From contig JAUWLS010000003.1 in the NCBI GenBank assembly GCA_030613565.1, forward strand, positions 1-63,841: 63,841 nt of DNA, read 5' to 3'. This DNA comes from Candidatus Shapirobacteria bacterium. GTDB lineage: Bacteria; Patescibacteriota; Microgenomatia; UBA12405; JAUWLS01. Under the pieces are notes generated by a model. That model made no database searches. It saw only the letters and a program-made list of their open reading frames with translations, and had not been told where the DNA came from. Position numbers and translations under genes: made by a program. This document shows positions 2,974 through 51,892 of the stretch, in pieces; position 1 is the stretch's first letter, and each line of letters opens with the position of its first letter.

Positions 2974-2994
2974 TCTATTTCAGTATGCCTTATT

Positions 2995-10809: not shown

Positions 10810-11593
10810 ACTTCTTTCTGTTATCATTCCCGCCTACCTTCAAGAAAAAACCATTCAAAAAGACCTTAAAAGAATCCAATCCACTCTAGATCAAATCCGT
10901 TACGACCATGAAATCATCTGCGTTGTTGATGGAAAAATCGATAAAACTTACCAAAATGCCAAAAAGGTATCTTCTCAAAAGCTAAAGGTCATCTCCTATA
11001 AAACCAACAAAGGTAAGGGGAATGCTGTTCGTTTTGGTATGGCACGGTCCAAAGGAAATTACATTGCCTTCATTGACTCTGGTATGGAAATTGATCCCAA
11101 CGGAATCAGCATGATCCTTGAACACATGGAGTGGTATCAAGCTGATATTATTGTTGGATCCAAGCGTCACCCTGCCTCCCAAGTCATTTATCCTCTCAAA
11201 AGGAAAATTCTAAGCCGCATCTATCAAATCTTTGTTCGCCTTTTTACTGGCCTTAATGTCACCGACACTCAAGTTGGTTTAAAAATCTTTCGCCGTCCGG
11301 TTTTAGAAAAAGTACTCCCTCGGCTTGTCATAAAGGCCTACGCTTTTGATGTCGAACTTCTTTCAGTTGCCCACCGCCTTGGTTTCAAACGCATCTACGA
11401 GGCTCCAGTTAAGTTAGATTACGACTTTAGAGGGCCCATTCATGCTGACACCTTCACTGCCATGAAACAGGCCTTTATGGACACCTTAGCTGTCATCTAC
11501 CGCCTAAGAATACTCAGATACTACGACAATAAGAATAAAAGAAAGTGGAAATTCGACCCCGATCTTAATTTTAGAGTCAACACTGGCCAATGA
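10790..11593 (+). CDS. GT2 glycosyltransferase, DPM1/polyprenol-phosphate glycosyltransferase-like
   Basis: LSVIIPAY, NKGKGNAVRFG, VGSKRHP, TDTQVGLKIF, FDVELL. Confidence 0.85.
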   Translation: MSPKKPKLLSVIIPAYLQEKTIQKDLKRIQSTLDQIRYDHEIICVVDGKIDKTYQNAKKVSSQKLKVISYKTNKGKGNAVRFGMARSKGNYIAFIDSGMEIDPNGISMILEHMEWYQADIIVGSKRHPASQVIYPLKRKILSRIYQIFVRLFTGLNVTDTQVGLKIFRRPVLEKVLPRLVIKAYAFDVELLSVAHRLGFKRIYEAPVKLDYDFRGPIHADTFTAMKQAFMDTLAVIYRLRILRYYDNKNKRKWKFDPDLNFRVNTGQ

Positions 11594-12591: not shown

Positions 12592-14385
12592 AAGCATCCT
12601 TTTTACCTTCTCATCTGTCGGATTATACTGTAAAACCAACTCTAACTCTGTTCTCGCCTCCCCATATCTTCCTGCCTGAGCCAAAATCACCCCTTTATTA
12701 AAATGCAAAGTCAAGTTCTCAGGACTTATCTCTATTGCCCTATTAATCGTCCCCACCGACTGATCCCACTCTTCAAGTTCAAAATAAACTGCTGCTAACT
12801 TTTGATAACTTTGCCATAAATTTGGATTTATTTCTATTGCTTTATAGTATTCTTTGATTGCCTCATCCACCTCTCCCACTAAAACATAAATATTGGCTCT
12901 ATTGTGAATTGCATCTCCATAATTCGGTTTTAACTCAATTGCCCAACTAAACTCCCGTATCGCGTTCTCATAATCTCCTGTCCTAGCATAATAATCCCCT
13001 AAATTATTATGGTTCTGATGTGACGATGGAGAAGTTCTAGCTGCCGATAACCACAAAGTATCCTGATTTTTCCAATCTCCATTTCTTACCACTGTCCTCA
13101 CTGTCAACCCCAGCCCCAAAAGGACTAAAAAAACCACCGCCACACCATCCCACTTTTTACTTCTTAAAAACTTATCCAATCCTATTGCCACCAAAACCAT
13201 CATCATCGTTGCTCCAAAGTAAACATACCTTTCCGCCACCAACCAACTCACTCCAAAAGGAGTCATTACTGGTAAAAGAGAAACAAAAAAAGCCATTGGC
13301 CAAAAACTCCATTCTCTTTTTTTGATCCACAAGTAAACCGTCCCTGAGAGAAAAATTAAAAACACTAAAATTAAACCAACAAACTTCACTGTTCCAAAAG
13401 TTAACTCTGAGTGATAAAGAGTTAACTTATCTGGCCAAACCATTAATCCCAAATACGAACTAACTGCCACTATTACCACCGCCAAAGGATTGGCCATCTC
13501 ACCACTGTGATAATGCTCTGACCCCAACCAATTCAATCTATCTGAAAGCATTGATAAAAAAACCAACCCCATCACAATTGCAGGAATAAAAGCTATAAAC
13601 AGTTTTTTAATCTCCTTTTTTCCCAATCCAAAACAGGCCACCAAAAGCAATAAAATCAAAGGATAGATAACTGCTTTTTCTGAAACACTAAAGGCTAAAA
13701 ACATTGCCAAAAAAGACCAGTAGAAATACTTCATCTTTTCTGTACCCAAAACATACAAAAATAATGCTAATAATAAAAAGAATGTGTACATTACATGACC
13801 AACACCTGTAACCCAAGTCACCGACTCTGTCATCAAAGGATGTATTGCTACCAGGCTCGCTGCCAACACTGCCACCCTCTTTTCTACTAACAAGCAAACT
13901 AAAACAAAAAGCAAACTCACTACACCAAAGTGAAAAGAAACATTTACCAATCTAAAAGCCATGGCTGATTTGCCAAACAAATGATAAACCAAAAAGAAGA
14001 CTAGTTGTTGAAAAGATCTAAAAGAAGAAAGTGGTGAAGAAAAAATCACTTTTAGATCACCAATGCCTTCATTTTGCACTATCGCTCCAATATCATCAGA
14101 AACAAATTCATTTGCCAAACCATTCATATAACAAACCCCCACCAATCCCAAAAACCACAAAAAAAACAACCAATTTTTTCTAAAAAAACTAACAAAAACA
14201 AACTTCTCTATTCGCCTTTTCAGGTTCAAATCCTTTTTCTCTCCCTCGCCTTTTTTCCTTCCTTTCTTTCCTAAATATTCTAGAATCAGATCCTCTTTAA
14301 CTCCCAAGCTCTTTGCTATTTGTTTCTCTGATCTCTTCCCCTTCTTCTTGTCTATATAATTTCTTTGCTTTTCACTAAGTCTCAT
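12571..14385 (-). CDS. TMTC-like GT-C membrane protein with C-terminal TPRs and an N-terminal HTH-like segment
   Basis: NEFVSDD acidic motif, FRLVNVSFH, AIHPLMTESVTWV, VAERYVY, RNGDWKNQDTLW, then TPR repeats. Confidence 0.8.
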   Translation of the reverse strand: MRLSEKQRNYIDKKKGKRSEKQIAKSLGVKEDLILEYLGKKGRKKGEGEKKDLNLKRRIEKFVFVSFFRKNWLFFLWFLGLVGVCYMNGLANEFVSDDIGAIVQNEGIGDLKVIFSSPLSSFRSFQQLVFFLVYHLFGKSAMAFRLVNVSFHFGVVSLLFVLVCLLVEKRVAVLAASLVAIHPLMTESVTWVTGVGHVMYTFFLLLALFLYVLGTEKMKYFYWSFLAMFLAFSVSEKAVIYPLILLLLVACFGLGKKEIKKLFIAFIPAIVMGLVFLSMLSDRLNWLGSEHYHSGEMANPLAVVIVAVSSYLGLMVWPDKLTLYHSELTFGTVKFVGLILVFLIFLSGTVYLWIKKREWSFWPMAFFVSLLPVMTPFGVSWLVAERYVYFGATMMMVLVAIGLDKFLRSKKWDGVAVVFLVLLGLGLTVRTVVRNGDWKNQDTLWLSAARTSPSSHQNHNNLGDYYARTGDYENAIREFSWAIELKPNYGDAIHNRANIYVLVGEVDEAIKEYYKAIEINPNLWQSYQKLAAVYFELEEWDQSVGTINRAIEISPENLTLHFNKGVILAQAGRYGEARTELELVLQYNPTDEKVKRMLLDLPSN

Positions 14386-14455
14386 TCTCCTATTCTACGA
14401 CATTTTAACTGTTATCATTCATAATAGAACCAAAGCCACATAGAAACTGTTTCTA

Positions 14456-15190
14456 ATGCCAAAAATAAATAAAAAACTACGGCTTTCCCAAAAGCTAGCA
14501 AAAAAAATTGACGGTTTCCTTAGTCAAAATGAAGGAGAATTGCTTTTTAAGCTAGCAAAAAACTGTCCTCCAAAAACATCTATTGTCGAAATCGGATCTT
14601 GGAAAGGAAAATCAACTGTTTTTCTAGGCCTTGGTTCTCAATCAGGAAACAAAAACAAAGTATATGCTATTGATCCACACACTGGATCTCCAGAGCATAA
14701 AAAAAAACTTGGAGAATTTTCCACTTTAAAACAATTTAAAAAAAACATCAAACAGGCAAATCTCAAACAAATAGTTGTTCCCATAGTTAAAACATCTACT
14801 CAAGCCGCTCCCTCTTTCAACAAGAAAATTGGCCTTCTTTTTATAGACGGTGACCATTCTTATCAAATGGTTAAAAAAGACTTTCAACTGTGGTTTCCTA
14901 AAATAGTTAATGGTGGAATCATTGCCTTTCATGATTCAAACACTCACTTTGATGTCAAAAAGACTGTGAATCAATTTGTCTTTACGTCATCAAACATTCA
15001 CCACCTTACTTTTAAAGAATCCATTCTTTATGGACAAAAGGCTAAAAAAATATCTCTTAAAGACAGATTTAAAAATATTTATCTTTTCCCTAACCATAGT
15101 TTATATTTCCTCATTAACCAGCTACCTTTCAGACCCCCTCCTTTTATAATAAAAATTGGAAAAAAAATTAGTCAACTTCTTCAGCTTTAA
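14456..15190 (+). CDS. Class I SAM-dependent methyltransferase (Methyltransf_24-like)
   Basis: IVEIGSWKGKST, AIDPHTGS, LLFIDGDHSY, GGIIAFHD. Confidence 0.85.
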   Translation: MPKINKKLRLSQKLAKKIDGFLSQNEGELLFKLAKNCPPKTSIVEIGSWKGKSTVFLGLGSQSGNKNKVYAIDPHTGSPEHKKKLGEFSTLKQFKKNIKQANLKQIVVPIVKTSTQAAPSFNKKIGLLFIDGDHSYQMVKKDFQLWFPKIVNGGIIAFHDSNTHFDVKKTVNQFVFTSSNIHHLTFKESILYGQKAKKISLKDRFKNIYLFPNHSLYFLINQLPFRPPPFIIKIGKKISQLLQL

Positions 15191-15240
15191 AATACGAAGT
15201 TTTAACAAAACCTTTTTCTTTCTTTCTATATAATTCATCT

Positions 15241-16179
15241 ATGTCCATAAAAACTATTCTTCTAACTGGATCCACTGGCTTCATTGGTTCTCATCTTTTA
15301 AAAAAACTACTTGAAGAAAAATACAAAGTCATTATTCTCAAAAAATCTACCTCACCCCTCTGGCGTATCGAAAAACTACTCCCTAAAACCAAACACTACA
15401 ACATCGATGAAACAGATCCAGAAACAATCTTTAAAAACAAAAAAATAGACTGCCTAATTCATCTGGCCACCAAATACATCAAAAAACATCAGACTAAAGA
15501 AGAGGTCCAAGAAATGATTGACATAAACATCAATCTCCCTTCTGTTCTCTCTCATCTTTGTATTCAGTACAAAGTCCCCTATTTTTTAAACACTGGCACC
15601 TTCTTCGAATATCAAATTCAGAAAAAACCTCTCACTGAAACTGATCCCCAAAAGCCATATAACTTCTACGCTGCCACCAAAACCGCTTTTGCAAAAATTC
15701 TAGAAGGCCAAACTCAAGAATCTAGCCTTAAAGCCACCACTCTCTATCTTTCTTCCACCTTCGGTCCCAAAGATAATCCTAAGCTATTCCCCTTCCTTAT
15801 AAAATCTCTACTAAAAAACCAAGAGGTGCTTTTTTCAGGAGGAGAACAGACCTGGAACTTCACTTACGTAAAAGATATTGTTTCCGCTTATATAAAAGTC
15901 TTAAAAAACTTTCCCAAACTAAAAGATTACGAAACCTTCCTTATCGGCCAACCCCAACCCCATTCTATTAAGGAAATTGTCTCCACTCTTGAAAAAATCA
16001 GTAAAAAGAAACTAAATATCACCTGGGGATCCAAGCCCTACATTGAAAATGAAATCTTTTTTGCCTCCTGCAGCTCAAAAAAAGCTCAAGAGAAATTAAA
16101 TTGGAAACCAAGCTATAATCTAAAAAGAGGTTTAAAAGAAACCTACAACTACTATTTAAAAAACCAAAACAGATTATGA
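15241..16179 (+). CDS. NAD-dependent epimerase/dehydratase (extended SDR, CDP-dideoxyhexose synthase-like)
   Basis: LTGSTGFIG, NTGTFFEY, PYNFYAATK (YxxxK). Confidence 0.85.
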   Translation: MSIKTILLTGSTGFIGSHLLKKLLEEKYKVIILKKSTSPLWRIEKLLPKTKHYNIDETDPETIFKNKKIDCLIHLATKYIKKHQTKEEVQEMIDININLPSVLSHLCIQYKVPYFLNTGTFFEYQIQKKPLTETDPQKPYNFYAATKTAFAKILEGQTQESSLKATTLYLSSTFGPKDNPKLFPFLIKSLLKNQEVLFSGGEQTWNFTYVKDIVSAYIKVLKNFPKLKDYETFLIGQPQPHSIKEIVSTLEKISKKKLNITWGSKPYIENEIFFASCSSKKAQEKLNWKPSYNLKRGLKETYNYYLKNQNRL

Positions 16180-16655
16180 CCAAAATATTCGGAGTAAAAG
16201 GTAATCCCATTGAAGGTGTTATCGTAAAATCCTTAAACAGAATTCCTGACGAAAGAGGTTCTGTTATGCACATGTTAAAAACCACTGATCCAGAATTCAG
16301 TAAGTTTGGTGAAATCTATTTCTCTACTATCCACCCTGGGGCAATCAAGGGTTGGCACATCCACACCAAAATGGAACTAAACTACACCACTGTTACTGGA
16401 AACGTTAAGTTTGTCCTCTACGATGATCGTCCCAAATCAAAAACCAAAGGAAATCTTCTGGAAATCTTCATGGGTGAAAAAAACTACTGCCTGGTCAAAG
16501 TGCCTCCCAATGTCTGGAATGGATTTAAAGGTATTGGGTACAAAGAAGCCATTGTCGCCAATTGCGCCACTCTTCCTCACGATCCTAAAGAAATAAAAAG
16601 ACTTGATCCTTTCTCAAAAAAAATTCCCTATAAGTGGGATCTAATCCACGGCTGA
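16176..16655 (+). CDS. rfbC: dTDP-4-dehydrorhamnose 3,5-epimerase-like cupin
   Basis: DERG, GAIKGWHIH, LYDDRPKSKT, VPPNVWNGF. Confidence 0.75.
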   Translation: MTKIFGVKGNPIEGVIVKSLNRIPDERGSVMHMLKTTDPEFSKFGEIYFSTIHPGAIKGWHIHTKMELNYTTVTGNVKFVLYDDRPKSKTKGNLLEIFMGEKNYCLVKVPPNVWNGFKGIGYKEAIVANCATLPHDPKEIKRLDPFSKKIPYKWDLIHG

Positions 16656-17545
16656 TCCTTCTTCAATTTTCTCCATACTGACACCTGTGACATAATGGTT
16701 TTTCCAACCATTTCAAAACGTCCAAAAAACAAATCTCTAATCACTATTAAAAACAACATTAGATAAAGTGCTAATAATCTACAAAACAACTCCACTCCAA
16801 AAAAATTATTAATTACTGTCCAAACCATATTTTTTCGTACACAAAACCACAAACTTGTTGAATCAGCATACTTTTTTACCGTCAAACTCCCTTTGTGGTA
16901 AACCCTTGCTTTAAAGCAATACCAAGACTCTCCCCCCATCCTTTTTGCTTTTAAATTTAAGTCAACATCTTCATAATAATATCTAAACCACTCATCATAC
17001 CCACCTAATTCCCAAAAAAAATCTCTATCCATCATAAAAACAGCGCTAGCCGCAAAATCAACCCGACTGTTTTGATCATATTGTCCCCTATCTCTCTTTC
17101 CACTACCTCGTCCACCACCCACACTAAGAAAGTATCTTCCACCCACATTATCTATCTTATTTTTTTCTCTATAAGAAAGAATTTTAGGCTGCACTAATAT
17201 CTTTTTTTTATCACCTACAAACTTAACCATTTCTTTCAAAAAATCTTTCTCAACAACAATATCGTTACTCAAAAAAACAATCTTCTTCCCCTTAGCTTTT
17301 TTAACCCCAAAATTAAAACCTCCCGTAAAATATTTATTTTTTTCTAGTCTAAACAGCTTAACTTTCTTCTCTTTTTTGTATCTCTTCTTTAAAAAAGAAT
17401 AACTATCATCAAACGACCCATTATCCACTACTACTATTTCAAAAAAAGAATAACTTGACTTCAATACTGAGTCAATACAGTCCCCCACAAACTCTTTTCC
17501 ATTGTAATTTAGAATAACTACCGAAACCATTTTCTTTTTATACAC
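16628..17545 (-). CDS. GT2 glycosyltransferase
   Basis: VSVVILNYNG, VVDNGSFD, FLSND, GGYDEWFRYYYEDVDL. Confidence 0.9.
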   Translation of the reverse strand: MYKKKMVSVVILNYNGKEFVGDCIDSVLKSSYSFFEIVVVDNGSFDDSYSFLKKRYKKEKKVKLFRLEKNKYFTGGFNFGVKKAKGKKIVFLSNDIVVEKDFLKEMVKFVGDKKKILVQPKILSYREKNKIDNVGGRYFLSVGGGRGSGKRDRGQYDQNSRVDFAASAVFMMDRDFFWELGGYDEWFRYYYEDVDLNLKAKRMGGESWYCFKARVYHKGSLTVKKYADSTSLWFCVRKNMVWTVINNFFGVELFCRLLALYLMLFLIVIRDLFFGRFEMVGKTIMSQVSVWRKLKKDQPWIRSHL

Positions 17546-18542
17546 TTTTGAACCAAGAAAAACCTTTAACTAAAAACGAACCCCAGGATAAATCACCAAA
17601 CATAATTTTATTCACCTCAACACCTTTCTGATCTAAACTTTTCACCTTCTTCCTCTTCTTAATTGTTTTTTCTAAATTTTTTACATTCCACCACCATCCC
17701 TCAAGCACTCCCTTACTCATTTTTACTCTTCCTTCTATTAAAAACTTAATCATTAAAAACAACCACCCCAAACAGTTAAATGGTAACAAATACCACAAGA
17801 CACTAATTGGACAATTTTTCAAAATATAATTCACATTGTTCTTCGACCCCTCATAAGCCACCCGTATTCCTCTTTTTTTCATACTACTCTTCCCAAAATG
17901 CCAAACCTTAAACTCAGGAGCATAAAACACCTGCTTTCCTGCCAACCAAATTCGCCAACACAGGTCTGTCTCTTCTCCGTAAATCATATAATCTTCATCA
18001 AACCCTCCCACTTGATCAAAAATATCTCTTCTCATCATCATACCCGCACTCCTGGCCCCAAAAATCATCCTTTCCTCATCGTGTTCCTTGGGATCCTCTC
18101 CTACTCCAATCTCATAAGGAAAACCCAAAATACTTAAAAAATGACCGGCCGCATCTATCTTTCCATCTTTTCTAAGCAATTTTGCTTGAATCACCCCCAC
18201 TCCATTATGTTTTTCTAAAAAACCAACCCCTTTTTTCAAACTGTTTTTACCTATCTTGGTATCAATGTCCAAAAACAATATATACTTTCCTTTTGACACC
18301 AAAACCCCTGCATTTCTGGCTCTTGACGCTCCAAAATTTCCTCCCAAATCGACAACTTTCACTTTTCTTTTCTTTTCATAGCCCCACATGATTCTTTTGT
18401 CTTTTTCCTCCATCCCATCGTCTACTACAACCACTTCAAAGTCGGAAAAGTTACTTGCCAACAAAGATTCTAAACATCCTTCAATATAGCCACCACCTCT
18501 AAAAACCGGAATCACCACTGAAACCAAAACTTTACTTTTCAT
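17538..18542 (-). CDS. GT2 glycosyltransferase
   Basis: VSVVIPVF, VVDDG, FLDID, GGFDEDYMIYGEETDLCWR. Confidence 0.9.
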   Translation of the reverse strand: MKSKVLVSVVIPVFRGGGYIEGCLESLLASNFSDFEVVVVDDGMEEKDKRIMWGYEKKRKVKVVDLGGNFGASRARNAGVLVSKGKYILFLDIDTKIGKNSLKKGVGFLEKHNGVGVIQAKLLRKDGKIDAAGHFLSILGFPYEIGVGEDPKEHDEERMIFGARSAGMMMRRDIFDQVGGFDEDYMIYGEETDLCWRIWLAGKQVFYAPEFKVWHFGKSSMKKRGIRVAYEGSKNNVNYILKNCPISVLWYLLPFNCLGWLFLMIKFLIEGRVKMSKGVLEGWWWNVKNLEKTIKKRKKVKSLDQKGVEVNKIMFGDLSWGSFLVKGFSWFKSV

Positions 18543-19582
18543 TAGTGTGGTTTTCCAGCAATATACGACAATGCTTTACGAAAATAATAAACCACTCCTT
18601 CTTTTGTACCCACCAAAGAAAAAAGTGCATCATCACTAATTTTTCTTTTTCTTTGAACCATTCTCCTCTTATTAATCACTGTTGGCCAATTCAATAAATT
18701 CCAAACAATCCCTCGCCATATTTCTATCGAACCTTTTTTCTCTCCTTTTAAGAACATAAAAAGGGCTAAAAACAACCATGATCCAATATTCAAAGGAGCT
18801 ACCCACCACACCTTTTTATTTCCCAAGTTCTTCAATAAAGTTATTATTGTATTTCTACACCCAAAATAATAATTACGATAGAGTTGATTGTTTTTCTTAT
18901 AATAAGTTCGTTTTTTGATCCCTTGGGCATGCCAAACTACTATTTCAGGAACAAATCTAACTTCGTATCCTGAAAGCCATGTTCTCCAAGCCAAGTCCGT
19001 ATCTTCACAATAAAAAAAATAATCACTGTCAAATCCTCCTATATTTTCAAAAACACTCCTTCTCCACCATGCTCCAGCGGTTTTTAAACCAAAAATATAA
19101 TCATATTTATCAAACTGTCCTTTATCCTTATCTCCCCGCGCTCTTTCTACTAAAAAACCAAAACCAGAAAACAAATCTCCTGCAGAGTCAAACAAATCAG
19201 TCCCCATTTTCAAAAGTTTTACCTGAAATGCTCCTGTTTTCTCATGTTTTTCAAAAAAATCCACTCCTTTTTGATACCACCCTTTAGCTAGCTTGGTGTC
19301 ATTATCTACAAAGAACAAGTACTTACCTAAACTATTCTTCACTCCAATATTCCTTGCCTTAGCTCCTCCTAAATTGTTATCTAAAGTTATTATCTTTAAT
19401 CTTTTTTCTCCTCCAAAGTTTTTATTCACTATTTCCATACTTTTGTCTTTAGATCCATTGTCCACTATCACTACTTCATATTTTCCATTTTTCTCTAAAA
19501 AAATAGATCTTAAACTTTTCTCTATAAACTCCTCCCCATTAAAACTACTAATCACTATCGAAACCAACATTTTATTTTTCAT
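18542..19582 (-). CDS. GT2 glycosyltransferase
   Basis: IVDNGSKD, FVDND, GGFDSDYFFYCEDTDLAWR. Confidence 0.9.
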   Translation of the reverse strand: MKNKMLVSIVISSFNGEEFIEKSLRSIFLEKNGKYEVVIVDNGSKDKSMEIVNKNFGGEKRLKIITLDNNLGGAKARNIGVKNSLGKYLFFVDNDTKLAKGWYQKGVDFFEKHEKTGAFQVKLLKMGTDLFDSAGDLFSGFGFLVERARGDKDKGQFDKYDYIFGLKTAGAWWRRSVFENIGGFDSDYFFYCEDTDLAWRTWLSGYEVRFVPEIVVWHAQGIKKRTYYKKNNQLYRNYYFGCRNTIITLLKNLGNKKVWWVAPLNIGSWLFLALFMFLKGEKKGSIEIWRGIVWNLLNWPTVINKRRMVQRKRKISDDALFSLVGTKEGVVYYFRKALSYIAGKPH

Positions 19583-29654: not shown

Positions 29655-30617
29655 TTATAAACTCAAATGTTTCTTCCCTTTTCTTGTAAGTACTCTTCCC
29701 CTGCCCGTCCTCTTAACAAACCCGATCTGTAATAGATAAGGTTCGTAAACATCTTCTATTGTTCCCACATCTTCCTGTAAGGCTGCTGCCAAAGTTTCTT
29801 TTCCTACCGGTCCTCCATCATACTTCTCTCCAATCACCCTCAAATATTTTCTATCTGCTTTCGAAAGTCCTTCTTTGTCTATTCCTAGTAGATCCAATGC
29901 TTCCTGAGCCACCTTCTTGTTCATCTTTCCATCACTCTTTATTTCTACATAGTCCCTAACCCTCTTCAAAAGCCTATTTGCCACCCTTGGCGTTCCCCTT
30001 GTTCTTGAAGAAATAAGTTCAATTCCTTCTTTGTCTAGTTCCATTCCCAAAACACCAGACGATCTTTTAAGAATTTCTAAAATGTCTTCATCCTCATAAA
30101 AATCCAACTGATGCACAAAACCAAACCTATCTCTCATTGGAGAACTAATCAGTCCAATTCTTGTTGTTGCCCCTACTATAGTAAAAGGGGCTAACTTTAA
30201 CCTTAAAGTCTTTGCTGACGGTCCCTTACCAAGCACTATATCCAACGCATAATCCTCCATCGCCGAATACAAAGTCTCCTCTACTGCCTTGTTTAACCTG
30301 TGAATTTCATCGATAAATAAAATATCCCCTTTTTTAAGTCCTGTTAAAATCGAAGCCAAATCTCCCACCCTTCCCAACACTGGTCCTGAAGTTATCTTGA
30401 TTTTCCCTCTCATTTCTTGAGCCAACAAAAACGCTAAAGTTGTTTTTCCTAGTCCTGGTGGTCCATAAAACAAAACATGCTCCAAAGCCTCATCTCTTTT
30501 TTTTGCTGCTTTAATAAAAATTTCCAGTTGTTCTTTTAAGTCTTTTTGCCCAATAAAGTCTAAAAGTTTTTCTGGTCTTAATACATTCCTCTGTACTTTC
30601 TTTTTTGTCATCTTCAT
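29655..30617 (-). CDS. ruvB: Holliday junction branch-migration helicase RuvB
   Basis: LRP..L.DFIGQ, GPPGLGKTT, FIDEIHRL, GATTR.G.I.SPMRDRFG, RGTPRVANRLL. Confidence 0.97.
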   Translation of the reverse strand: MKMTKKKVQRNVLRPEKLLDFIGQKDLKEQLEIFIKAAKKRDEALEHVLFYGPPGLGKTTLAFLLAQEMRGKIKITSGPVLGRVGDLASILTGLKKGDILFIDEIHRLNKAVEETLYSAMEDYALDIVLGKGPSAKTLRLKLAPFTIVGATTRIGLISSPMRDRFGFVHQLDFYEDEDILEILKRSSGVLGMELDKEGIELISSRTRGTPRVANRLLKRVRDYVEIKSDGKMNKKVAQEALDLLGIDKEGLSKADRKYLRVIGEKYDGGPVGKETLAAALQEDVGTIEDVYEPYLLQIGFVKRTGRGRVLTRKGKKHLSL

Positions 30618-31186
30618 TCTCTACCTCCCAACTCTCCCAAACACCAACCAACTTTTTCTTCTATCTCTTTCATTTCTTCAGGCATTCTTTTCATTACTGC
30701 CTCTATCTCTGCTTTTACAAACCCCAAACTCTTCAATCCCTGATAAACCTCATCTTCTTCTATCTCATTTTCAAAAAAGTCTAATTCTCCTAATCCTCCC
30801 ACCTTGGATTTTAAATCCACTATTATTCTCTGGGCCCCTTTCTTTCCAATTCCTTTCACTTTCTCAAAAAAAGACACATCTGCTTTTGAGATTGCCCCCA
30901 ATATCTCCTCTGAATGATAATCCGAAAATATGCCAATTGCCGTCTTTGGTCCAACCCCCGAAACTCCTATTAAAAGTTTAAAAACCTCCACCTCTTCTCT
31001 CTCCAGAAAACCATAAAGATCCATTACTCCTTCTGCAACATGCATGTGCGTATATAAAAGAACTTCTCCTTCTGCTTCCTCTATCACCCTCTTGTGTGTC
31101 AAAACTAAATAACCCACTCCTCGTACCATCACTTCCACTGACCCCTTTCCTTTCCTTAAACAAATCCCATTTAAACAAGAAATCAT
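30614..31186 (-). CDS. ruvA: Holliday junction DNA-binding protein RuvA
   Basis: GVGY, LYGF, LIGVSGVGPKTA, VKGIGKKGAQRIIVDLK. Confidence 0.95.
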   Translation of the reverse strand: MISCLNGICLRKGKGSVEVMVRGVGYLVLTHKRVIEEAEGEVLLYTHMHVAEGVMDLYGFLEREEVEVFKLLIGVSGVGPKTAIGIFSDYHSEEILGAISKADVSFFEKVKGIGKKGAQRIIVDLKSKVGGLGELDFFENEIEEDEVYQGLKSLGFVKAEIEAVMKRMPEEMKEIEEKVGWCLGELGGRE

Positions 31187-31225
31187 AAGTTCATTCTACA
31201 CTCTCTTCCCGAAAGAAACACGAAG

Positions 31226-31684
31226 TCAAAAACTTTTACTCATCAAGTGAGTCAGGGCCACTGCCACCGCATCTGCCGCATGATCTGGCTCAATTACTTC
31301 TTCTATGTCCAATATCTGCTGAACCATAGAAAGCACCTGGTCTTTATCTGCTCTCCCATATCCCACCACCGCCATCTTTACCTGCAAGGGTGTATATTCT
31401 TTCACTTTCACTCCATTATTAACCCCTGCTACTTTTATTACCCCCATCGCCTCTGCTACTTTCAATGCCGATCTCTTGTTCTTTGCAAAAAACAAATCCT
31501 CTATTGCCATTACTTTCACTTTGTACTTTTTAACCAACTTCTCAATTTCCTTGTAAATCACTCCCAACTTTTCTGACACCTCCCCTTTCTTGTTCTCAAT
31601 GCACCCATAATCCACCAAAGTTTCTTCATCCTTTAAAATCGCCCACCCCACATTATTAAGTCCTGGATCTATCCCCATTATCAT
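31226..31684 (-). CDS. ruvC: Crossover junction endodeoxyribonuclease RuvC
   Basis: IMGIDPG, AIEDLFFAKN, EYTPLQVKMAVVGYGRADKDQV, DHAADAVAVA. ATG 31684 is 5 nt after TAAAAT. Confidence 0.95.
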   Translation of the reverse strand: MIMGIDPGLNNVGWAILKDEETLVDYGCIENKKGEVSEKLGVIYKEIEKLVKKYKVKVMAIEDLFFAKNKRSALKVAEAMGVIKVAGVNNGVKVKEYTPLQVKMAVVGYGRADKDQVLSMVQQILDIEEVIEPDHAADAVAVALTHLMSKSF

Positions 31685-31698
31685 ACTCAATTTTACCC
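31575..31698. repeat. Direct repeat B1: ruvC promoter and 5' end (intact copy)
   Basis: 122/124 identical to 33202-33325. Confidence 0.95.
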
Positions 31699-31992
31699 TA
31701 ATTTTTTATGGACTCCCAAAAACCAAACACAATAAAGTCAATGCCGAGAAAGACAAGAAGGAATCCTGGGTTTTGGAGGATAATTAAAAAAAATCCTAAA
31801 TTTAACAGAAAGGGTAGAAAGACTGATCCTCTTTTCCCTCAACAGGTATCTTCTGTCGGTTTGACCAACAACCAATTAATAGAAAACAACAAAATCAAAA
31901 AAAGACTTTTTGGGGAGATTTTGAGACTAGAGTTTTTTTAAACATGTTATTATTATAAAAATAATCGCAGTGGTTAAAAGCTATAGACATAT

Positions 31993-32922
31993 ATGTCAAG
32001 ATTGAGAAAACTATATTGGTCAGTAACCAATAGTTGTAATTTGGGTTGCAGGTACTGTTACTATAATTCTGGTTTGGAGTCTAGGGTTGGTGGGAATAAA
32101 AATCCGCTTGATTATCCTAACATTTTGGATGATATGGCCAAAACTTTTGGTGAAATAGTTTTTACTGGTGGTGAGCCATTACTGTTTAATGGTCTGTTTG
32201 ATTTAATTTCTTTTTTTAAATCGAAGAATAGACGGGTTGGTGTTTTGACCAACGCCACCCTGTTAACTAAAGCAGTTGCCAAAAGAATGGTGGCTATGCA
32301 AGTGGACAGTGTGTCTGTTTCGTTGGATTCGCTTGATAGGAAAGAGAATGATTATCTGAGAGGTAAAACCAAGCATGTTATGGCGGGTTTGAAAAATATT
32401 TTGTCGGTTAAAAACAGTGGTATGAAGATTGAGATAATGCAGACGATTAGTAAAGTTAATTACGGTTCAATTCCGGAATTGGTTTCCTTTTGTAAGAAAA
32501 AAAACATTACACTTTGGCTTGATCCGGTTGAGGTCAACAAGAAGCTTTGTCATTTACGTAGTTTAGATTTGAAAGAAATGTCTACCAAACAATTAATGGA
32601 GTTAGAAAAGCAGATGTTAATGTGGGCGCAAGGTAATCCTGTGTTGGAGATTTATGTCAAGAATTGTTTACTGTTAATCAAGGGAAGAAAGTCGGGTGAG
32701 TTGTTTTGTCCTATGGGAACCAGTAGTTTCATTCTTGATCCTGATGGAAATGTATATCCGTGTTTTTTAAGAAAAGATATTTTGTTGGGTAATATTTACA
32801 AAATGTCGTTTGAACAAATTTTGGGTAGTAAATTGTTGGAAAAAAAGCGAAAGGAACTACAAAGTGGACAATGTGTGAAACTGGGCTGTGTTTGTATGAC
32901 TATATCTGATAATTATCGGTAA
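31993..32922 (+). CDS. Radical SAM protein with C-terminal SPASM/twitch-like domain
   Basis: CNLGCRYC, FTGGEPLL, VLTNATLL, VSVSLDS, CPMG...DGNVYPC. Codon usage is G/T-rich, opposite to other + strand genes. Confidence 0.85.
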   Translation: MSRLRKLYWSVTNSCNLGCRYCYYNSGLESRVGGNKNPLDYPNILDDMAKTFGEIVFTGGEPLLFNGLFDLISFFKSKNRRVGVLTNATLLTKAVAKRMVAMQVDSVSVSLDSLDRKENDYLRGKTKHVMAGLKNILSVKNSGMKIEIMQTISKVNYGSIPELVSFCKKKNITLWLDPVEVNKKLCHLRSLDLKEMSTKQLMELEKQMLMWAQGNPVLEIYVKNCLLLIKGRKSGELFCPMGTSSFILDPDGNVYPCFLRKDILLGNIYKMSFEQILGSKLLEKKRKELQSGQCVKLGCVCMTISDNYR

Positions 32923-33201
32923 TTGGCTTATTTAGGCTAGTAGGGATTGGTGAGTTTTGGTGAGATAGGTTGTGGAGGGTAAGTGTGCCAGAGCTGGAAG
33001 GGTATTTATTGAATAGCGGTACTGTTTAAGAAACGGGCGTTTTTTTTAGAACCCAAATTTTTGCTTTAGAGTCTTGAATTTTGTCTGGTTACCAATAGCT
33101 ACTTGAAGTGAACATTTACCATTGAGTTTCCTGAATTTACCTTGACAGTCGGTAAAGGGTTTTAGTCGTCTTTGGATAAAGTAAGTGTTAAACCATAGTC
33201 G

Positions 33202-33325
33202 GACACCTCCGCTTTCTTGTTCTCAATGCACCCATAATCCACCAAAGTTTCTTCATCCTTTAAAATCGCCCACCCCACATTATTAAGTCCTGGATCTATC
33301 CCCATTATCATACTCAATCTTACCC
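33202..33325 (-). pseudogene. Direct repeat B2: truncated ruvC 5' fragment
   Basis: Encodes MIMGIDPGLNNVGWAILKDEETLVDYGCIENKKAEVS, then runs into unrelated sequence. Confidence 0.95.
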
Positions 33326-33346
33326 CAACTGCTATACTATTCCCAC

Positions 33347-34408
33347 ATGGACAGTAAGAAAGTGGCCCAAACAATTCAAGACAAGTTTCCCGATCTAACC
33401 GTAAAAACTAACTGGTCTCTCGCTCCCCTATCCACCTTTAAAATCGGTGGACCCGCCCAAATCTTCACCATCACCAAGTCATCCAATCAACTAAAAGAAC
33501 TCCTGGTCTTTGTCAAAAAAGACCATCCCCAACTTCCTCTTACCATCTTAGGAAATGCCAGTAACACTCTCATCTCCGACTCTGGAATAGAAGGTCTCGT
33601 CATTAAAAACACCTCCCAAAACATTCATATTCTTAAAAAAAAACCACCAGAAAGTAAAAAACAACTTATTCCTGTTTTAAGGCAAGAAAAAGACTCTAAA
33701 AAATATCTTGATTTTAATTCTTTAAACTACGACGAGTCAGACAAAGAGAAAGTTTTTGTTGAAATTGAATCCGGAGTCCCCTTCCCCTATGCCATTTCCC
33801 ACCTTCTTCAAAAAGGCGTTACTGGACTTCAATGGTTTGCTGGTATCCCTGGTACTGTTGGTGGAGCAACTTGGTACAATCTCCACGGTGGATCCTATCA
33901 TCTTTCTGATTTTATCCACTCTGTTGAGGTCTTGGACCTTAAAAACTCCACTGTTAAAAAAATGTCTCCAAAAGACTTAAACTTCGCCTATGACTACTCT
34001 CTACTTCAAAAGAAGCCTAATCTAATTATCCTCTCCACCACTCTCTCTCTTTATAAAGGAAATATAGAAAAAGCCCAATCCACAGCCCAAAAATGGATCG
34101 AACAGAAGAAAAAAGTTCAACCTATCCCCTCTGCTGGATCTGTCTTTAAAAATCTCTCTCCTGACCTTGCTCAAAAACATGGCTTTGAGTCCTCTTCTGT
34201 CGGTTGGATTATTGACCAAAAACTAAAATTAAAGGGAAAAACCATTGGTAGTGCCCAAATTAGCCCTCTTCATGCCAATTTCATAGTCAATACAGGCAGC
34301 GCTAAAGCTAAAGATGTCCTTTCTTTGATAAAACTTGTCCAAAAAGAATTCAAAAACCGCTGGAATATAAAACTTGAACCCGAAATCAAGATTTTAGACA
34401 ATGTCTAA
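33347..34408 (+). CDS. murB: UDP-N-acetylenolpyruvoylglucosamine reductase
   Basis: STFKIGGPA, LGNASN.L.SD.G, GIPGTVGGA, FAYDYS, PSAGSVFKN, AQISPLHANFIVN, LEPEI. Confidence 0.93.
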   Translation: MDSKKVAQTIQDKFPDLTVKTNWSLAPLSTFKIGGPAQIFTITKSSNQLKELLVFVKKDHPQLPLTILGNASNTLISDSGIEGLVIKNTSQNIHILKKKPPESKKQLIPVLRQEKDSKKYLDFNSLNYDESDKEKVFVEIESGVPFPYAISHLLQKGVTGLQWFAGIPGTVGGATWYNLHGGSYHLSDFIHSVEVLDLKNSTVKKMSPKDLNFAYDYSLLQKKPNLIILSTTLSLYKGNIEKAQSTAQKWIEQKKKVQPIPSAGSVFKNLSPDLAQKHGFESSSVGWIIDQKLKLKGKTIGSAQISPLHANFIVNTGSAKAKDVLSLIKLVQKEFKNRWNIKLEPEIKILDNV

Positions 34409-35557
34409 ATTCAAAACTTCACCAGACCCCCTCTCCTCAACATTCTCTTTTCTCCAAAGCCTTAGCTCCTTTTGAAATCTCCATTTTTCCAAAGCTTCCT
34501 GTTTTCTAAAATTAACCAACAAAAGGGTCTTGAGTATATCAATCTATAAACTTGTACTAAACGCTAACCAAATTTAATTAACCAACAAACTATGTGAAAC
34601 ATTAACTTTCTATATAAAGTATCCCCTTCAAAAATCACTTAATTCCTATAGTATTTTAAGAAACTTAGTCTATAACCCCCTCCTCCTCACTGACCATTAA
34701 GAAACAAAAACTGAAAAGAAAAATATATAAGATCTTTCACCCCTCTCCTCTTTTTAATTTTTTATTCCCAAAAAAACCTCTTCTCTCTCCTCTTTTACTT
34801 CCCCTTACTTGGTCTTTGTCAAAAAAGTCATTCTCTCCTCTTCTAATAAAACCTCACCCACCCTTATCTCTTAAAAACACTAAAAATCACCATTCTCCTA
34901 TTACTAAAACAAGCCTTTTCTTTTTTCTTTACATTTTTTCTCACGCTTCATTTACCTTTCGACCTTCTCCAAACTCACTATTTCTACCCTCTTTGTGGTC
35001 TCCCGCCTACCTAGGCTAAACCTACCTCAAAGCTCAAAAGCCCTATTTGGCAAAGAACTCAACCTTCTGACAAAGCATATTGCCCAAGGTTTTTCCCCTA
35101 TTTATAAGCCAATACACGTGCTTGCAACAAAGCATTAATCTTGACTTTTCCACACCAATGCATCAAAAAAACCTGATTTTTATCATTTTCGTCATGCCCA
35201 AAACTTCTAAAAACCCTTTTTTCATATTTTCTTTTTCTTTTTTTTCAAAAAATATTTTCCCAAACCCCTTTTCTTTAATTTCACGAATCCTCTATCCTTA
35301 TTCTATAAGATAATAACGTCGCTCACCCTCTCCTTACCCCTATATCTCTATCTATAGGACCAGAAACAAACTAAAAGCTATCTCCCAAACCCCTTCTTTG
35401 AACAACTTATTTATTCAAACTCTCCTTCTTGAAACAAGTCTAAGCGCTTTTAAACATCAAAAAAACCTTTCCCCATATAACACAAACCTACAAGATAAAA
35501 AAACAAAAGGAAAAACCGCTCAAAACAATCCTAAAATTCTAGTACTATAAGCCTCTC

Positions 35558-40541: not shown

Positions 40542-41780
40542 TTAATCTATTATCGCCAGTCTAAACTTTTCCTCCCAGAAAAACTCTTTCGCTATTTTCT
40601 TCACCTCATCTAGGCTCACCTTCTCATAACTTTCTATCTCCTCCGACACTTTAGCCAACTTTTTATTCAAGATTAACTTCTCGCCCACAAAGTCTGCCCA
40701 AAAGTCTGATCTGTCCATTAGTAAAGCTAACCGGCCCTTCAAATAGTCCTTAGCCATCAGTAACTCATCTTCTCTCACTCTTTCTCCTATTAAAAGATAC
40801 TCTTTTTTAGTCTCTTCAATCACTTTCTCAAGTTTATCTTTACTAACCCCTGCCTGCACTCCTGAAAACCCTGCCTCTTCCAATCTATCACTTACTGAAT
40901 ATACGTAATAAGCTGCTCCCATCTTCTCCCTTATCCTCTGGTACAACCTCGAAGACGTGTTTCCCGATAATATGATGTCCAAAAGCTTCATTGCATGTCT
41001 TCTCTGGTCATCCCTCTTAATCGTGGGTAACCCTAATATAAAATGTGCCTGATCCAATCCCTTCTTCTTTCTCCACTCCTTCTTCTCTGACAATTCCATT
41101 CTTACCTTAGGCAACTCTTTTTTACTGCCTAAAAACCCCGAAAAGTACTTTTCAATCCATCCTCTTATCTTCTCTTTATCTTTTCCCAAGTTTCCTGCCA
41201 CTACTACCACCATTTCTTTGCTATCAAGATAATTATCTCTAAAACTAACCAAATCACTCTTCTTTATTGAAAGCACACTTTCTTTACTCCCCAATATATT
41301 CCAACACCCCACTTTACCTGACTTATACATTAACTTATAAAACTCTCCCCCAATTCCTCTCATGGGCGTATCTTCATACATATTTATCTCCTCTACTACC
41401 ACCCCCAACTCCTTTTTTAATTCCTTCTCTGGAAAGGTTGGATTAAGAAGCATATCAGACAAAATCTCTATCCCCCACTCAATGTGTCCAGGCACTGTTT
41501 TTACATAATATTCCGTATACTCATGATTGGTTGAAGCATTGTGTATTGAACCTATCTGATCAAACTCCTTACTTATCTCTGTGGCTGTTTTTCTATTTTT
41601 AGTCCCCTTAAACGCCATATGCTCCAAAAAATGACTTATTCCCCACACCTTGCTCTCTTCATACTTGCTTCCAATCTTTACAAACACCTGCACCGTCACC
41701 GACGAAAGTCCTTCTACAGGCACCAAACAAGCTCTTACTCCATTTGAAAGCTCAAAATATTCATACTTAGAATCAGTCAT
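40542..41780 (-). CDS. M16 (pitrilysin/insulinase) family zinc metallopeptidase
   Basis: GISHFLEHMAFKGT (HxxEH), NASTNHEYT, VVVEEINMYED, GNTSSRLYQRIRE. Confidence 0.93.
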   Translation of the reverse strand: MTDSKYEYFELSNGVRACLVPVEGLSSVTVQVFVKIGSKYEESKVWGISHFLEHMAFKGTKNRKTATEISKEFDQIGSIHNASTNHEYTEYYVKTVPGHIEWGIEILSDMLLNPTFPEKELKKELGVVVEEINMYEDTPMRGIGGEFYKLMYKSGKVGCWNILGSKESVLSIKKSDLVSFRDNYLDSKEMVVVVAGNLGKDKEKIRGWIEKYFSGFLGSKKELPKVRMELSEKKEWRKKKGLDQAHFILGLPTIKRDDQRRHAMKLLDIILSGNTSSRLYQRIREKMGAAYYVYSVSDRLEEAGFSGVQAGVSKDKLEKVIEETKKEYLLIGERVREDELLMAKDYLKGRLALLMDRSDFWADFVGEKLILNKKLAKVSEEIESYEKVSLDEVKKIAKEFFWEEKFRLAIID

Positions 41781-41798
41781 TCCTCATTCTATCACTCC
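41728..41798. repeat. Direct repeat F1: M16 promoter and 5' end (intact copy)
   Basis: 32/41 (41728-41768 vs 43199-43239) and 18/21 (41778-41798 vs 43250-43270) identical. Confidence 0.75.
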
Positions 41799-42568
41799 CC
41801 CAACCCTCTCACCCAGTCATCAAATTTCTCCACCTGGACAAGCTTTTTAGCCTTTACCAAAAAAGGTTCTACATCCAAAGACAGTTCCTTCAAATCATGT
41901 TTCATGCAAAAACCCACCAGTTCCTGCTTCAATTCCTTCATGTTCCCTATTCCCACCAACTCCTGTAACAAATTCCAATTGGGCTTTGTCTTAGAAAACA
42001 AAAAAACAGTATCGTACAAATCCCTGCCCTTGGCTCGTTTTCTTCCTAAAAGAGCTGACAGTTTTTGAGATAAAATAACATCCACTGGGTATACTTTAAC
42101 CTCTACAAAAATACCAAATTTATTAATCACTTTAGCCACAAAGTTAACTTCACCTTTTCTTTGACTAATATCCAATTGTATTAATACTTTCTCAGTTTTC
42201 TGATCTGTCAAATTAAATTTCTGCAATACTCCCAAAAATCTTAAATAACATCTGAACACTCCCTTATACACATTTCTATATTCCGTCTCAAAACCCTCTC
42301 TTTTTAAACTCAAAACCAAATGTTTAACCATTCGATCAAACTCATCCTTACTCAAATCAATGCCATCTAAATCCAAATCCTCAGAAAATCTATCGTTACC
42401 ATGAACAATTCTCACACTAGTCCCTCCCATAAAAACTAACTTCTCACCATATTTAGACTCAAACAATATCTCCAACACCTTATACTGCAAATACTCTTTC
42501 ACCATCATTCTGTCTAAACTACTTTCTTCCGAAGAAAAGAAAGATTTTATCTGTTCAAAATCAAGCAT
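41792..42568 (-). CDS. abiEii: AbiEii nucleotidyltransferase toxin (type IV TA)
   Basis: LVFMGGTSVRIVHG..RFSEDLD, KLSALLGRK...RDLYD. Confidence 0.9.
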   Translation of the reverse strand: MLDFEQIKSFFSSEESSLDRMMVKEYLQYKVLEILFESKYGEKLVFMGGTSVRIVHGNDRFSEDLDLDGIDLSKDEFDRMVKHLVLSLKREGFETEYRNVYKGVFRCYLRFLGVLQKFNLTDQKTEKVLIQLDISQRKGEVNFVAKVINKFGIFVEVKVYPVDVILSQKLSALLGRKRAKGRDLYDTVFLFSKTKPNWNLLQELVGIGNMKELKQELVGFCMKHDLKELSLDVEPFLVKAKKLVQVEKFDDWVRGLGE

Positions 42569-43161
42569 TAATATGTTTCAAAAAAACCTAACAATCGTTT
42601 TTTCAACGCCCTCGAATAAACAAGCTCAACGTAATCATAAACTCTTTTTAAATCAAAGTCCTTGCTTAAATTCAACCTCAGTCCTGCTAAATCACCTTTG
42701 TCCTTTAAATCTTTCCTAAAATAGACAAGGTCAAACAACGCCTTTTCTGGACTTGCGATCCGAAAAAGTACATCCTCAACTTTTGACTTTCTGTTCACAT
42801 AGCCAGTAAAAAGATCGGCTTTGATTTTAAAATACCTAAAACTACCAAACTGGTTTTCAAGTCTTTCTCCCCTCTCACAAGAAACACTAGTAACAACTCT
42901 ACTTATTTCTGGAATCAGTTGGTAAAAAGACAAGGCATACTCTAAAGAAATGTAAGACTTATTAATCTTGTTAGCCATCAAGTGAATGTCTGGGTTTTCA
43001 TTTGGCAACATATAAAGACCTTTTCTAACCTTCACTAACCAACCTTTTTTAATCCAAACACTTATCTGCTGTCTATTAACTTCACCATACCTGTTTCTCA
43101 GCTCCTGAACAGACAGCACCTGTCTATTTCCAAAATCCTTCATCAAGCTCAAATATCTCAT
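42568..43161 (-). CDS. abiEi: AbiEi antitoxin (type IV TA)
   Basis: WIKKGWLVKVRKGLY, SYISLEYALSFYQLIPE, IASPEKALFD. Confidence 0.88.
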   Translation of the reverse strand: MRYLSLMKDFGNRQVLSVQELRNRYGEVNRQQISVWIKKGWLVKVRKGLYMLPNENPDIHLMANKINKSYISLEYALSFYQLIPEISRVVTSVSCERGERLENQFGSFRYFKIKADLFTGYVNRKSKVEDVLFRIASPEKALFDLVYFRKDLKDKGDLAGLRLNLSKDFDLKRVYDYVELVYSRALKKRLLGFFETY

Positions 43162-43198
43162 ATTGTCATAAAATTCTACAACAATATGGAATGTTAAT

Positions 43199-43270
43199 CA
43201 AGTTCTCGCTCTATTTTCCAGCTCAAAATACTTATACTTCCAGGCTCACCACTCCTCACCCTATCACTCC
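43199..43270 (-). repeat. Direct repeat F2: truncated M16 5' end directly after tmk
   Basis: Encodes KYKYFELENRART* versus KYEYFELSNGVRAC in the intact gene; shares GGAGTGATAG..TGAGGA.TG around the start codon. Confidence 0.75.
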
Positions 43271-50641: not shown

Positions 50642-51892
50642 TTATACCATCTCCTTCTCCCTGTCTTTCCGCCCAACTATCCACCAACTCACTATTAAAT
50701 AGTACCCCACAACCATAAACCAGTTAACTTCTACTTCCATTGACAACCACTCCCAACTACCCAAAAAACTAACCACTTCCGAAAAGTACCAGGCCAATGG
50801 ATACACTCCCCACATTATCACCCTCCCTACTACCTCTCCCACTACTGGAACCAACCCTAGAACGCTCCCTACCATTCCTAATATTGTTATTGGTCCCACT
50901 ACCCCCATCACTACCATGTTCACTCCCACCCCCGCCCACTGAAGCTCAGAAAAATTAACTGCCAATATTGGCCAGACCATTAAAAACACCCACCACCCCA
51001 CCCTCAACTCTTGCCCCACTCCTTTCCCTTTTCCAGCCAACACCACCCCCATCATCGCCATCACACTCAACTGAAAAGAAACCTCTAATATCACTCCTGG
51101 ATTAAAAATCACCATCCCCACCACTGCCACCAAAAGTGCCCTCCCCACACTAAACTTTCTACCCACAACTTGTCCTAAAAACAAAACACTTGCCATTATC
51201 CCCGCCCGCACAACTGGACTATCAAACCCTGCTAAAAATGCATAAAACCATATCATTAGTAACCCTACTACCAGAGCAATTTTTCTACCCAACAATAAAC
51301 TTAAGCCCGTAACTACCGCTCCTGCGACCAAAGCCACATTGCTTCCACTAGCCACTACGATATGTAATGTTCCCGTCCTTTTTAGTCTCTCTAAAAACTC
51401 ACTGTCCATTCCTCCTCTCACTCCCAACACCATTCCCGATACCAAGTCCCCTTCTCTTTTAGGCAAACTCTTTTTGATTACTCCCAAAAGCTTATTCCTC
51501 ACTTTTCCCACTGCCTTATACCACCCACTTTCTCCAGTTCCTTCCATCTCTTCCCCCTCAACAAAACAACCCTCCCTACACTCTCCCTCTTCTTTCTCCA
51601 CTACCCTAAATCTTCCTACCACTCTCACACAATCTCCTGTCTCCAACCTTCTCCCTTCTGATAGATAAATCTTAAACCCACCCAACTCAAAACTTTGACC
51701 TCTCTTTTTAATCTCACTCTCCTCTCTCAAGCACCCTCTAATTTCAACTCTCTCTCCAATTCTATACTCTCTTCTAGACCCGTACCAATCTATAAACCTG
51801 TATATCAAAAGAGTAACTAGTATCACCCAAAAAAGATCTCTTTTCTTAAATCTCAATCTCATCTTTGATCTTTTCAAATACCTTATCTCCAA
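50642..51892 (-). CDS. comEC: ComEC/Rec2 membrane DNA-uptake channel (Competence domain)
   Basis: GMVLG, TGTLHIVVASGSNV, SPVVRAGIM, SFQLS. Confidence 0.9.
   Translation of the reverse strand: MEIRYLKRSKMRLRFKKRDLFWVILVTLLIYRFIDWYGSRREYRIGERVEIRGCLREESEIKKRGQSFELGGFKIYLSEGRRLETGDCVRVVGRFRVVEKEEGECREGCFVEGEEMEGTGESGWYKAVGKVRNKLLGVIKKSLPKREGDLVSGMVLGVRGGMDSEFLERLKRTGTLHIVVASGSNVALVAGAVVTGLSLLLGRKIALVVGLLMIWFYAFLAGFDSPVVRAGIMASVLFLGQVVGRKFSVGRALLVAVVGMVIFNPGVILEVSFQLSVMAMMGVVLAGKGKGVGQELRVGWWVFLMVWPILAVNFSELQWAGVGVNMVVMGVVGPITILGMVGSVLGLVPVVGEVVGRVIMWGVYPLAWYFSEVVSFLGSWEWLSMEVEVNWFMVVGYYLIVSWWIVGRKDREKEMV

Follow-up and report, generated by a model that had tools for sequence, protein, structure and literature searches.

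An apparently recent insertion with long target duplication at the ruvC gene of a Candidatus Shapirobacteria bacterium

The genome of a Candidatus Shapirobacteria bacterium (GenBank assembly GCA_030613565.1) carries, between ruvC and murB, a 1,500-bp segment that is flanked by 127-nt direct repeats of the start of ruvC and that encodes a radical SAM/SPASM protein next to the truncated end of an insertion sequence (IS). The segment lies on contig JAUWLS010000003.1, which was analyzed over its entire length of 63,841 nucleotides (hereafter, the window) and which is contig C33 among the 36 contigs of this 858-kb genome (G000). The host belongs to the Candidate Phyla Radiation (CPR), and its genome was assembled from a short-read metagenome. 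Judging from the anatomy of the locus, the ruvC insert belongs to a known and mechanistically unexplained class of events, insertion with long target duplication, and is not a new kind of system. The reading that we favor, with a probability of roughly 0.7, is the illegitimate joining of a linear fragment with arbitrary ends into a target that had been opened at two sites 127 nt from each other and that fill-in then duplicated.

The duplicated start of ruvC and its empty counterpart

The features of the locus are as follows, with positions in the window:

31226..31684, minus strand: ruvC, intact, 152 amino acids from the ATG at 31684 (TTG at 31690); Pfam RuvC, 4.4e-47
31575..31701: left target copy, comprising the 17 nt ahead of the ruvC ATG and the first 37 codons, contiguous with the body of ruvC
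31702..33201, plus strand: inserted segment (cargo), 1,500 bp, not in the same-genus relative G001
31702..31992, plus strand: A-rich left part of the cargo, 291 bp, no similarity detected
31993..32922, plus strand: radical SAM/SPASM gene, intact, 309 amino acids; PF04055 1.6e-19, PF13186 3.3e-9
33019..33202, minus strand: 3' end of an IS256-like element; identity of 83% with the full copy (C34:95085-96251) and of 91% with a relic on contig C36
33162..33311, minus strand: ruvC stub, an open reading frame (ORF) of 37 ruvC codons plus 12 codons from the IS fragment, then a stop
33202..33328: right target copy, joined to the native upstream DNA and murB, with three derived substitutions
33347..34408, plus strand: murB, native divergent neighbour of ruvC; Pfam MurB_C and FAD_binding_4

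The two repeats are identical at 124 of their 127 positions, with a longest perfect run of 107 nt, and differ at 31584/33211 (C/G), 31692/33319 (T/C), and 31699/33326 (T/C). A search of the whole genome returned these two copies and no third. The segment that they enclose has a GC content of 35.4%. These measurements agree with a preliminary description of the window, which had noticed about 1.5 kb between repeats of 122/124 bp. The edges of the insert show no inverted repeats. Analysis of its ORFs and of their Pfam matches revealed no integrase, recombinase, prophage, or intact mobility gene, the only trace of this kind being a 51-codon transposase remnant.

The insert differs from its surroundings by its strand composition. 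Its GC skew is +0.31, whereas that of the 1.5-kb intervals outside it on the same contig is -0.42 +/- 0.11 (n=591), with a maximum of -0.12. The sliding GC skew had been put forward as a check on the insertion, and it shows the skew of the segment to be inverted. Genome-wide, this is the sole 1-kb island whose skew is inverted relative to strongly skewed surroundings. The asymmetry between strands is extreme throughout the genome, the GC skew of contigs reaching up to +/-0.4. This compositional bias tracks the DNA strand and not transcription, because true plus-strand genes, such as murB, have a C-rich coding strand. The preliminary description had spoken of a G/T-rich strand in a C/A-rich window. 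Its observation on G and C holds (+0.31 vs -0.42), but the one on A and T does not, since the AT skew is -0.02 inside the insert and 0.00 outside.

The gene that adjoins the left repeat is a complete ruvC (160 bits, full length, positions 1-148 of the 148 of the Pfam RuvC profile), followed downstream by ruvA (30614-31186) and then ruvB (29655-30617). The stub on the other side of the cargo has a weak match to the same profile, limited to the N-terminus (positions 1-39). Translation and Pfam analysis thus bear out the earlier suggestion that ruvC was regenerated and that a 37-codon stub was left on the side of the native promoter. As an outcome of the insertion, the intact ruvC-ruvA-ruvB unit is now separated from its native upstream DNA, and it is the stub that adjoins murB, with the native gap of 35 bp between the ruvC and murB ATG codons. 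The ruvC gene may perhaps be transcribed from the native side, by polymerase that reads through the cargo, or from a promoter-like pair that spans the left junction (-35/-10-like boxes at 31719-31690, minus strand). The latter is a lead only, as the scan for promoters and terminators did not return more sites than it did in shuffled sequences.

We compared the locus with that of G001, a relative from the same genus that is about 73% identical, so that the comparison is at the level of the genus rather than within the species. The two flanks of the insert map to overlapping coordinates on contig C49 of this relative: window positions 29664-31701 correspond to 13370-15395, and positions 33220-34612 to 15286-16689, with an overlap of about 110 bp. 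There, ruvC and murB are 36 bp apart with nothing in between. Since both flanks fall on overlapping coordinates, we take the empty site to be the ancestral state. Furthermore, G001 matches the intact left copy at all three positions where the repeats differ, which places the three substitutions in the decaying stub. We considered whether the two mismatches at the left edge could reflect an imperfect microhomology with the donor and rejected this, as G001 has T and T there, like the left copy. Exact-protein look-ups of MurB and RuvC returned no other contigs, hence no empty allele from the same species.

Altogether, the empty site in the relative, the 3 differences over 127 positions between the repeats, and a strand skew that has not been ameliorated support the view, already expressed in the preliminary description, that the insertion is recent.

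Contents and origin of the inserted segment

The right end of the cargo is a fragment of an IS. It holds a terminal inverted repeat (33019-33046) together with some 51 codons from the end of a transposase gene (33055-33207), which tblastn matches to transposase residues 302-352. The full element of the same family (G000:C34:95085-96251) has imperfect terminal inverted repeats and encodes a 354-amino-acid transposase with an N-terminal zinc ribbon. This transposase resembles those of IS256/Mutator (NF033543 4e-16, PF00872 3e-5), with scores below the family cut-offs, and the copy is flanked by a target duplication of ~10 bp, GCCTTTTGTT. The relic (C36:5610-6005) consists of the first 290 bp of the element joined to an inverted copy of its last 106 bp. 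Because all three copies end at the same base, we place the true terminus of the element at position 33019. Hence, the genuine end of the IS faces the radical SAM gene, and the element is cut internally exactly where the ruvC stub starts, with at most 1 nt shared at this junction (G at 33202). The preliminary description had rightly noted a fragment at about 32930-33200 but left it unassigned, without recognizing an IS. From its similarity to the copies on C34 and C36, it is therefore identified as an IS end (33019-33202) cut at the junction. Of the 41 genomes of the order that were searched at E<=1e-10, this is the only one in which the IS256-like family was found.

The radical SAM gene scores well above the cut-offs of its two domains (71 bits for PF04055, cut-off 29.5; 37 bits for PF13186, cut-off 21.5). 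Its product carries a CxxxCxxC motif (around residues 15-22) and, at the C-terminus, a SPASM region rich in Cys. Homologues of 300-320 amino acids cover 97-99% of this protein, which is thus full length relative to them, with a top identity of 53% in the protein search. In NCBIfam, every match of the protein is below cut-off, and none gives an equivalog-level assignment. Because the gene neighbourhoods of the homologues are not conserved, we do not infer a function. The closest homologue (53%) is encoded at L015 (JGI Ga0315294_10005071), in an archaeal-looking context with S5-L30-L15-SecY-Adk, a Cbf5-like pseudouridine synthase, and a SAM synthetase. This family of radical SAM/SPASM proteins of about 300 amino acids is scattered over CPR bacteria and, probably, DPANN archaea.

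The gene is separated from the IS fragment by a spacer of 96 bp. Neither this spacer nor the left 291 bp of the cargo has a tblastx or blastn match in the genome or in the loci that encode homologues of the radical SAM protein, and neither has a match in Pfam or Rfam. The membrane-protein-like fragment that had been described at about 31700-31930 thus finds no support in these searches. The left part holds a 77-codon ORF (31708-31941) of doubtful reality. We considered it as a possible precursor peptide, which is unconvincing, since it lacks both cysteines and homologues. A promoter-like site (31937-31965) precedes the radical SAM gene, again in a scan that did not exceed chance.

The composition of the radical SAM gene bears on where the cargo came from. 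Its GC skew at third codon positions (GC3 skew) is +0.54, a value like those of ORFs coded on the G-rich strand of this genome (0.55 +/- 0.17, n=172), and the gene is the most extreme outlier among the 196 ORFs coded on the C-rich strand (-0.51 +/- 0.20). Its codon usage lies at the 86th percentile of the host genes of the G-rich strand, i.e., within the range of the host. There is a mild discrepancy in the excess of T over A at third positions (+0.29), which is about 2 standard deviations off the host mean. Because of the GC3 skew, the codon usage, and the restriction of the IS family to this genome among the 41 searched, we infer that the cargo comes from this lineage or a very close strain and is inverted relative to replication. 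The data thus support a cargo made of such DNA, inserted in inverted orientation and not yet re-equilibrated. The earlier proposal that it was chromosomal DNA from the opposite replichore agrees with this on the lineage and on the inverted orientation; an origin in the other replichore is not separable from a simple inversion.

Three more ORFs on the C-rich strand have a positive GC3 skew (+0.16 to +0.34), at C24:19939-20562, C28:20722-21651, and C2:13659-14150. These genes may have been inverted or acquired longer ago; a search for flanking repeats found none above the level of shuffled sequences.

A possible mechanism and its rivals

Insertion with long target duplication was described for restriction-modification genes, first in Helicobacter pylori and later in Haemophilus, Neisseria, Campylobacter, and others (PMC2853133; an earlier description, Nobusato, Uchiyama, Ohashi, Kobayashi 2000, Gene 259:99, is cited therein). 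The class is defined by direct repeats of more than 30 bp (up to ~420 bp) that align to a single target in a genome with the empty site. The published inserts lack mobility genes, occur mostly in naturally competent hosts, and have an unexplained mechanism, for which Furuta, Abe, Kobayashi 2010 (NAR 38:2428) suspected DNA breakage made by the cargo itself (PMC2853133). The ruvC insert resembles them in being a short block (<20 kb) free of mobility genes, flanked by direct repeats that exceed 30 bp, belong to a class of variable lengths, are unique to the site, and correspond to a single-copy empty site. It departs from the published cases, and from the screen of Furuta and colleagues, by its cargo, which consists of a radical SAM/SPASM gene and an IS end instead of restriction-modification genes and encodes no restriction enzyme, toxin, or nuclease, and by its CPR host. 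The empty site is here provided by a comparison within the genus and not, as in those studies, within the species.

In the course of events that we favor, the source fragment would have extended from 291 bp upstream of the radical SAM/SPASM gene to 184 bp inside the adjacent IS256-like element. It may have entered the cell with the help of the competence machinery, as the genome encodes ComEC (window 50672-51433), DprA, and RecA; a genome search for Ku found none. Illegitimate recombination would then have joined the fragment to the beginning of the ruvC region, across 127 bp made up of the 17-nt leader and 37 codons, with an overlap of ~1 nt at the one junction that is readable. The product suggests that the target had two openings separated by 127 nt, produced by staggered single-strand breaks or by a template switch in which replication left its template and re-entered it at that distance; fill-in would then have placed a copy of the target on either side of the cargo. 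Insertion in an inverted orientation relative to replication would account for a cargo whose strand skew is opposite to that of the contig. With a 107-nt perfect core and recA present, the two 127-bp repeats could plausibly recombine in a RecA-dependent manner and so bring back the ancestral arrangement.

Several points weigh against such a history. The donor locus was not found in the assembly, where a DNA search revealed only the IS part elsewhere, nor in public data, where a protein search gave at most 53% identity besides the gene itself; two exact-pattern scans of metagenome contigs for this locus gave nothing. The sole outgroup is only ~73% identical. The junction between the IS and ruvC may be the scar of a later deletion, in which case the original insert and its duplication would have been larger. 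All three mismatches are within 10 nt of the edges of the repeat, a pattern that also fits a hybrid between donor and recipient alleles produced by homologous recombination. Finally, the evidence for the insertion is drawn from assembled contigs.

The alternative that survives best, which we nonetheless regard as unlikely, is a Campbell-type entry: the cargo would have arrived already joined to the start of ruvC, and a single crossover, homologous or site-specific, would have duplicated the 127 bp. The source could be a circle from a sister strain, made of the cargo and one repeat, or a decayed integrative element mimicking the start of ruvC. The product has exactly the form expected from an insertion-duplication. 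As in integrative elements, the direct repeats lie at the end of a gene, one intact gene is accompanied by a displaced fragment, and excision restores the site. The mismatches (C...T,T on the left; G...C,C on the right) are those expected from a crossover between two alleles inside the 107-nt core, and three tyrosine recombinase genes are found elsewhere in the genome, outside the insert. However, there is no integrase in or beside the insert, the repeat is the host's own sequence, and no attachment core is shared among the eight events of this genome (see below), whose duplications vary from 36 to 127 nt. The agreement of the left copy with G001 at three positions is explained equally well by a decaying stub, and the Logan contig from another sequencing run (see below) has C, not G, at 33211. 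Moreover, a circle joining ruvC DNA to the cargo would still require an earlier illegitimate event. A Campbell-type entry could nevertheless explain how the block spreads between strains.

We give still less credit to the transposition of the segment by the IS256-like element or by the IS1634-family transposase of contig C17. The presence of an IS end inside the cargo speaks for it, as does the fact that the genome encodes an IS1634-family transposase (NF033559, 1.8e-112), since IS1634 and IS1549 are documented to produce long and variable duplications, with direct repeats of 8-514 bp (PMC2266710). Like these elements, the ruvC locus shows a target duplication within a range of tens to hundreds of bp, but theirs flank an IS with its own ends, whereas the ruvC insert has neither such ends nor their transposase. 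The IS256-like terminal repeat is 184 bp from the junction, the element is truncated internally, and neither junction shows the ends of an element of either family. The ends of the insert lack inverted repeats and do not resemble the IS1634-like ends TCCTGACTTCCG. Furthermore, duplications of the IS256 type are short, as illustrated by the ~10 bp at the complete element on C34. The structure of the junctions thus largely refutes a transposase-mediated origin. The IS1634-family element of contig C17 (L029, 646-2316) encodes a transposase of 520 amino acids between its terminal inverted repeats, and 263 bp further on, where the contig ends, lies the start of another copy.

The least probable explanation is an assembly artefact, i.e., a mis-join inside the repeat, the true molecules being an empty ruvC/murB site and a separate 1.6-kb circle or another locus. 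A short-read metagenome-assembled genome and a repeat with a 107-nt perfect core would make such an error conceivable. We noticed that ten pairs of contig ends share terminal sequence, with an overlap of exactly 141 nt in eight of them, which indicates a de Bruijn assembly at k=141. This k exceeds the length of the 127-nt repeat and of its perfect core, so both passages through the repeat are backed by spanning k-mers, and these can be told apart since the copies differ on both sides of the core. In addition, a Logan contig of 1,552 nt from the independent run SRR12623517 corresponds to window positions 31662-33213 with one difference (the C at 33211). It ends inside both repeats, which leaves some room for the artefact, but it covers both junctions with foreign DNA (cargo/ruvC leader and IS fragment/ruvC codon 37), which therefore exist in a second set of reads, each joining ruvC to the cargo. 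Given these fusions, resolving the assembly graph the other way would yield what excision of this very insert produces, and we judge the artefact highly improbable. The same search for terminal overlaps revealed that positions 1-141 of the window match, in reverse complement, the beginning of contig C28, which makes C33 and C28 neighbours.

Illegitimate joining of a linear fragment also has relatives among templated or filler-DNA insertions. Fork stalling and template switching or microhomology-mediated break-induced replication (FoSTeS/MMBIR), as well as double illegitimate recombination in natural transformation, can insert an arbitrary segment in either orientation with minimal microhomology. 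The ruvC insert is similar to their products in its minimal microhomology, and the target can be duplicated in such events. None of these processes is known from CPR bacteria.

Older events of the same type and their meaning

Our analysis of the repeats suggests that the window holds at least two older events of the same type as the ruvC insertion, and we identified further candidates there and on other contigs. They are listed below, the first three with positions in the window:

3645-3699 / 4442-4496: repeats identical at 44/55 nt (80%) around an AbrB-like/PIN pair (3819-4345), between the start of a Nudix gene and miaB
41725-41798 / 43196-43270: repeats 75% identical over 74-76 nt around AbiEi/AbiEii (41792-43161), between tmk and an M16 peptidase gene
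62332 / 62921 (62332-62971): candidate, 52-nt duplication at a nucleotidyltransferase gene
C4:2014-2125 / 2903-3008 (L022): candidate, 112-nt duplication (84%) around a Phd/YefM-ParE pair, with dprA and a histidine phosphatase gene on either side
C13:8808 / 9593: candidate, 59-nt duplication
C18:17486 / 18211: candidate after topA, 43-nt duplication
C34:83717 / 84644: candidate, 36-nt duplication at a DUF3800 gene, between ddl and recA

The repeats around the AbrB-like/PIN pair are a duplicated start of the Nudix gene, with the same architecture as at ruvC and the divergence of an older event; no Nudix gene was found beside miaB in G001. Those around the AbiE genes are a duplicated start of the M16 peptidase gene. 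Their alignment score is 54, against a maximum of 31 in shuffled sequences, and the site is empty in G001. Across the genome, local repeats of 35-200 nt are direct in 34 cases and inverted in 4, a count in which some of the direct pairs are tandem paralogues.

The duplicated segments and insert ends of the eight events, that of ruvC included, show no shared motif, core, or similarity. The variable lengths of the duplications, the unrelated targets, and the lack of a recombinase disfavor site-specific recombination. On contig C10, direct repeats of 126 nt (96%) at 11118-11243 and 18429-18554 stand 7.3 kb apart and enclose about nine genes, with a skew of -0.05 inside a region of +0.3. This block is probably a larger foreign island with a flanking duplication.

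The ruvC case bears on how small accessory gene blocks enter compact genomes without a recombinase of their own, and it is unusually informative for three reasons. It is young, with three substitutions in the repeat and an un-ameliorated skew. Its cargo is neutral DNA that has no nuclease gene and ends at an arbitrary point inside an IS. Finally, the extreme strand skew of the host provides a built-in marker of the origin and orientation of the inserted DNA. Considered alongside the older toxin-antitoxin insertions, which share its architecture, the ruvC event speaks for a mechanism supplied by the host and not by the cargo, and it points to competent CPR bacteria as hosts in which insertion with long target duplication could be studied. 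We only tentatively extend this to the idea, which we find somewhat doubtful, that a host-driven process requiring no nuclease, toxin, or defined ends in the cargo could be this CPR lineage's principal way of acquiring small gene blocks. If this were true, any fragment taken up by the competence machinery could be inserted at gene boundaries, in either orientation, and ordinary homologous recombination could then remove the repeat-flanked block or carry it from one strain to another. In that case, the insertion at ruvC would be the freshest snapshot of this process, its cargo being an arbitrary chromosomal fragment that ends inside an IS.

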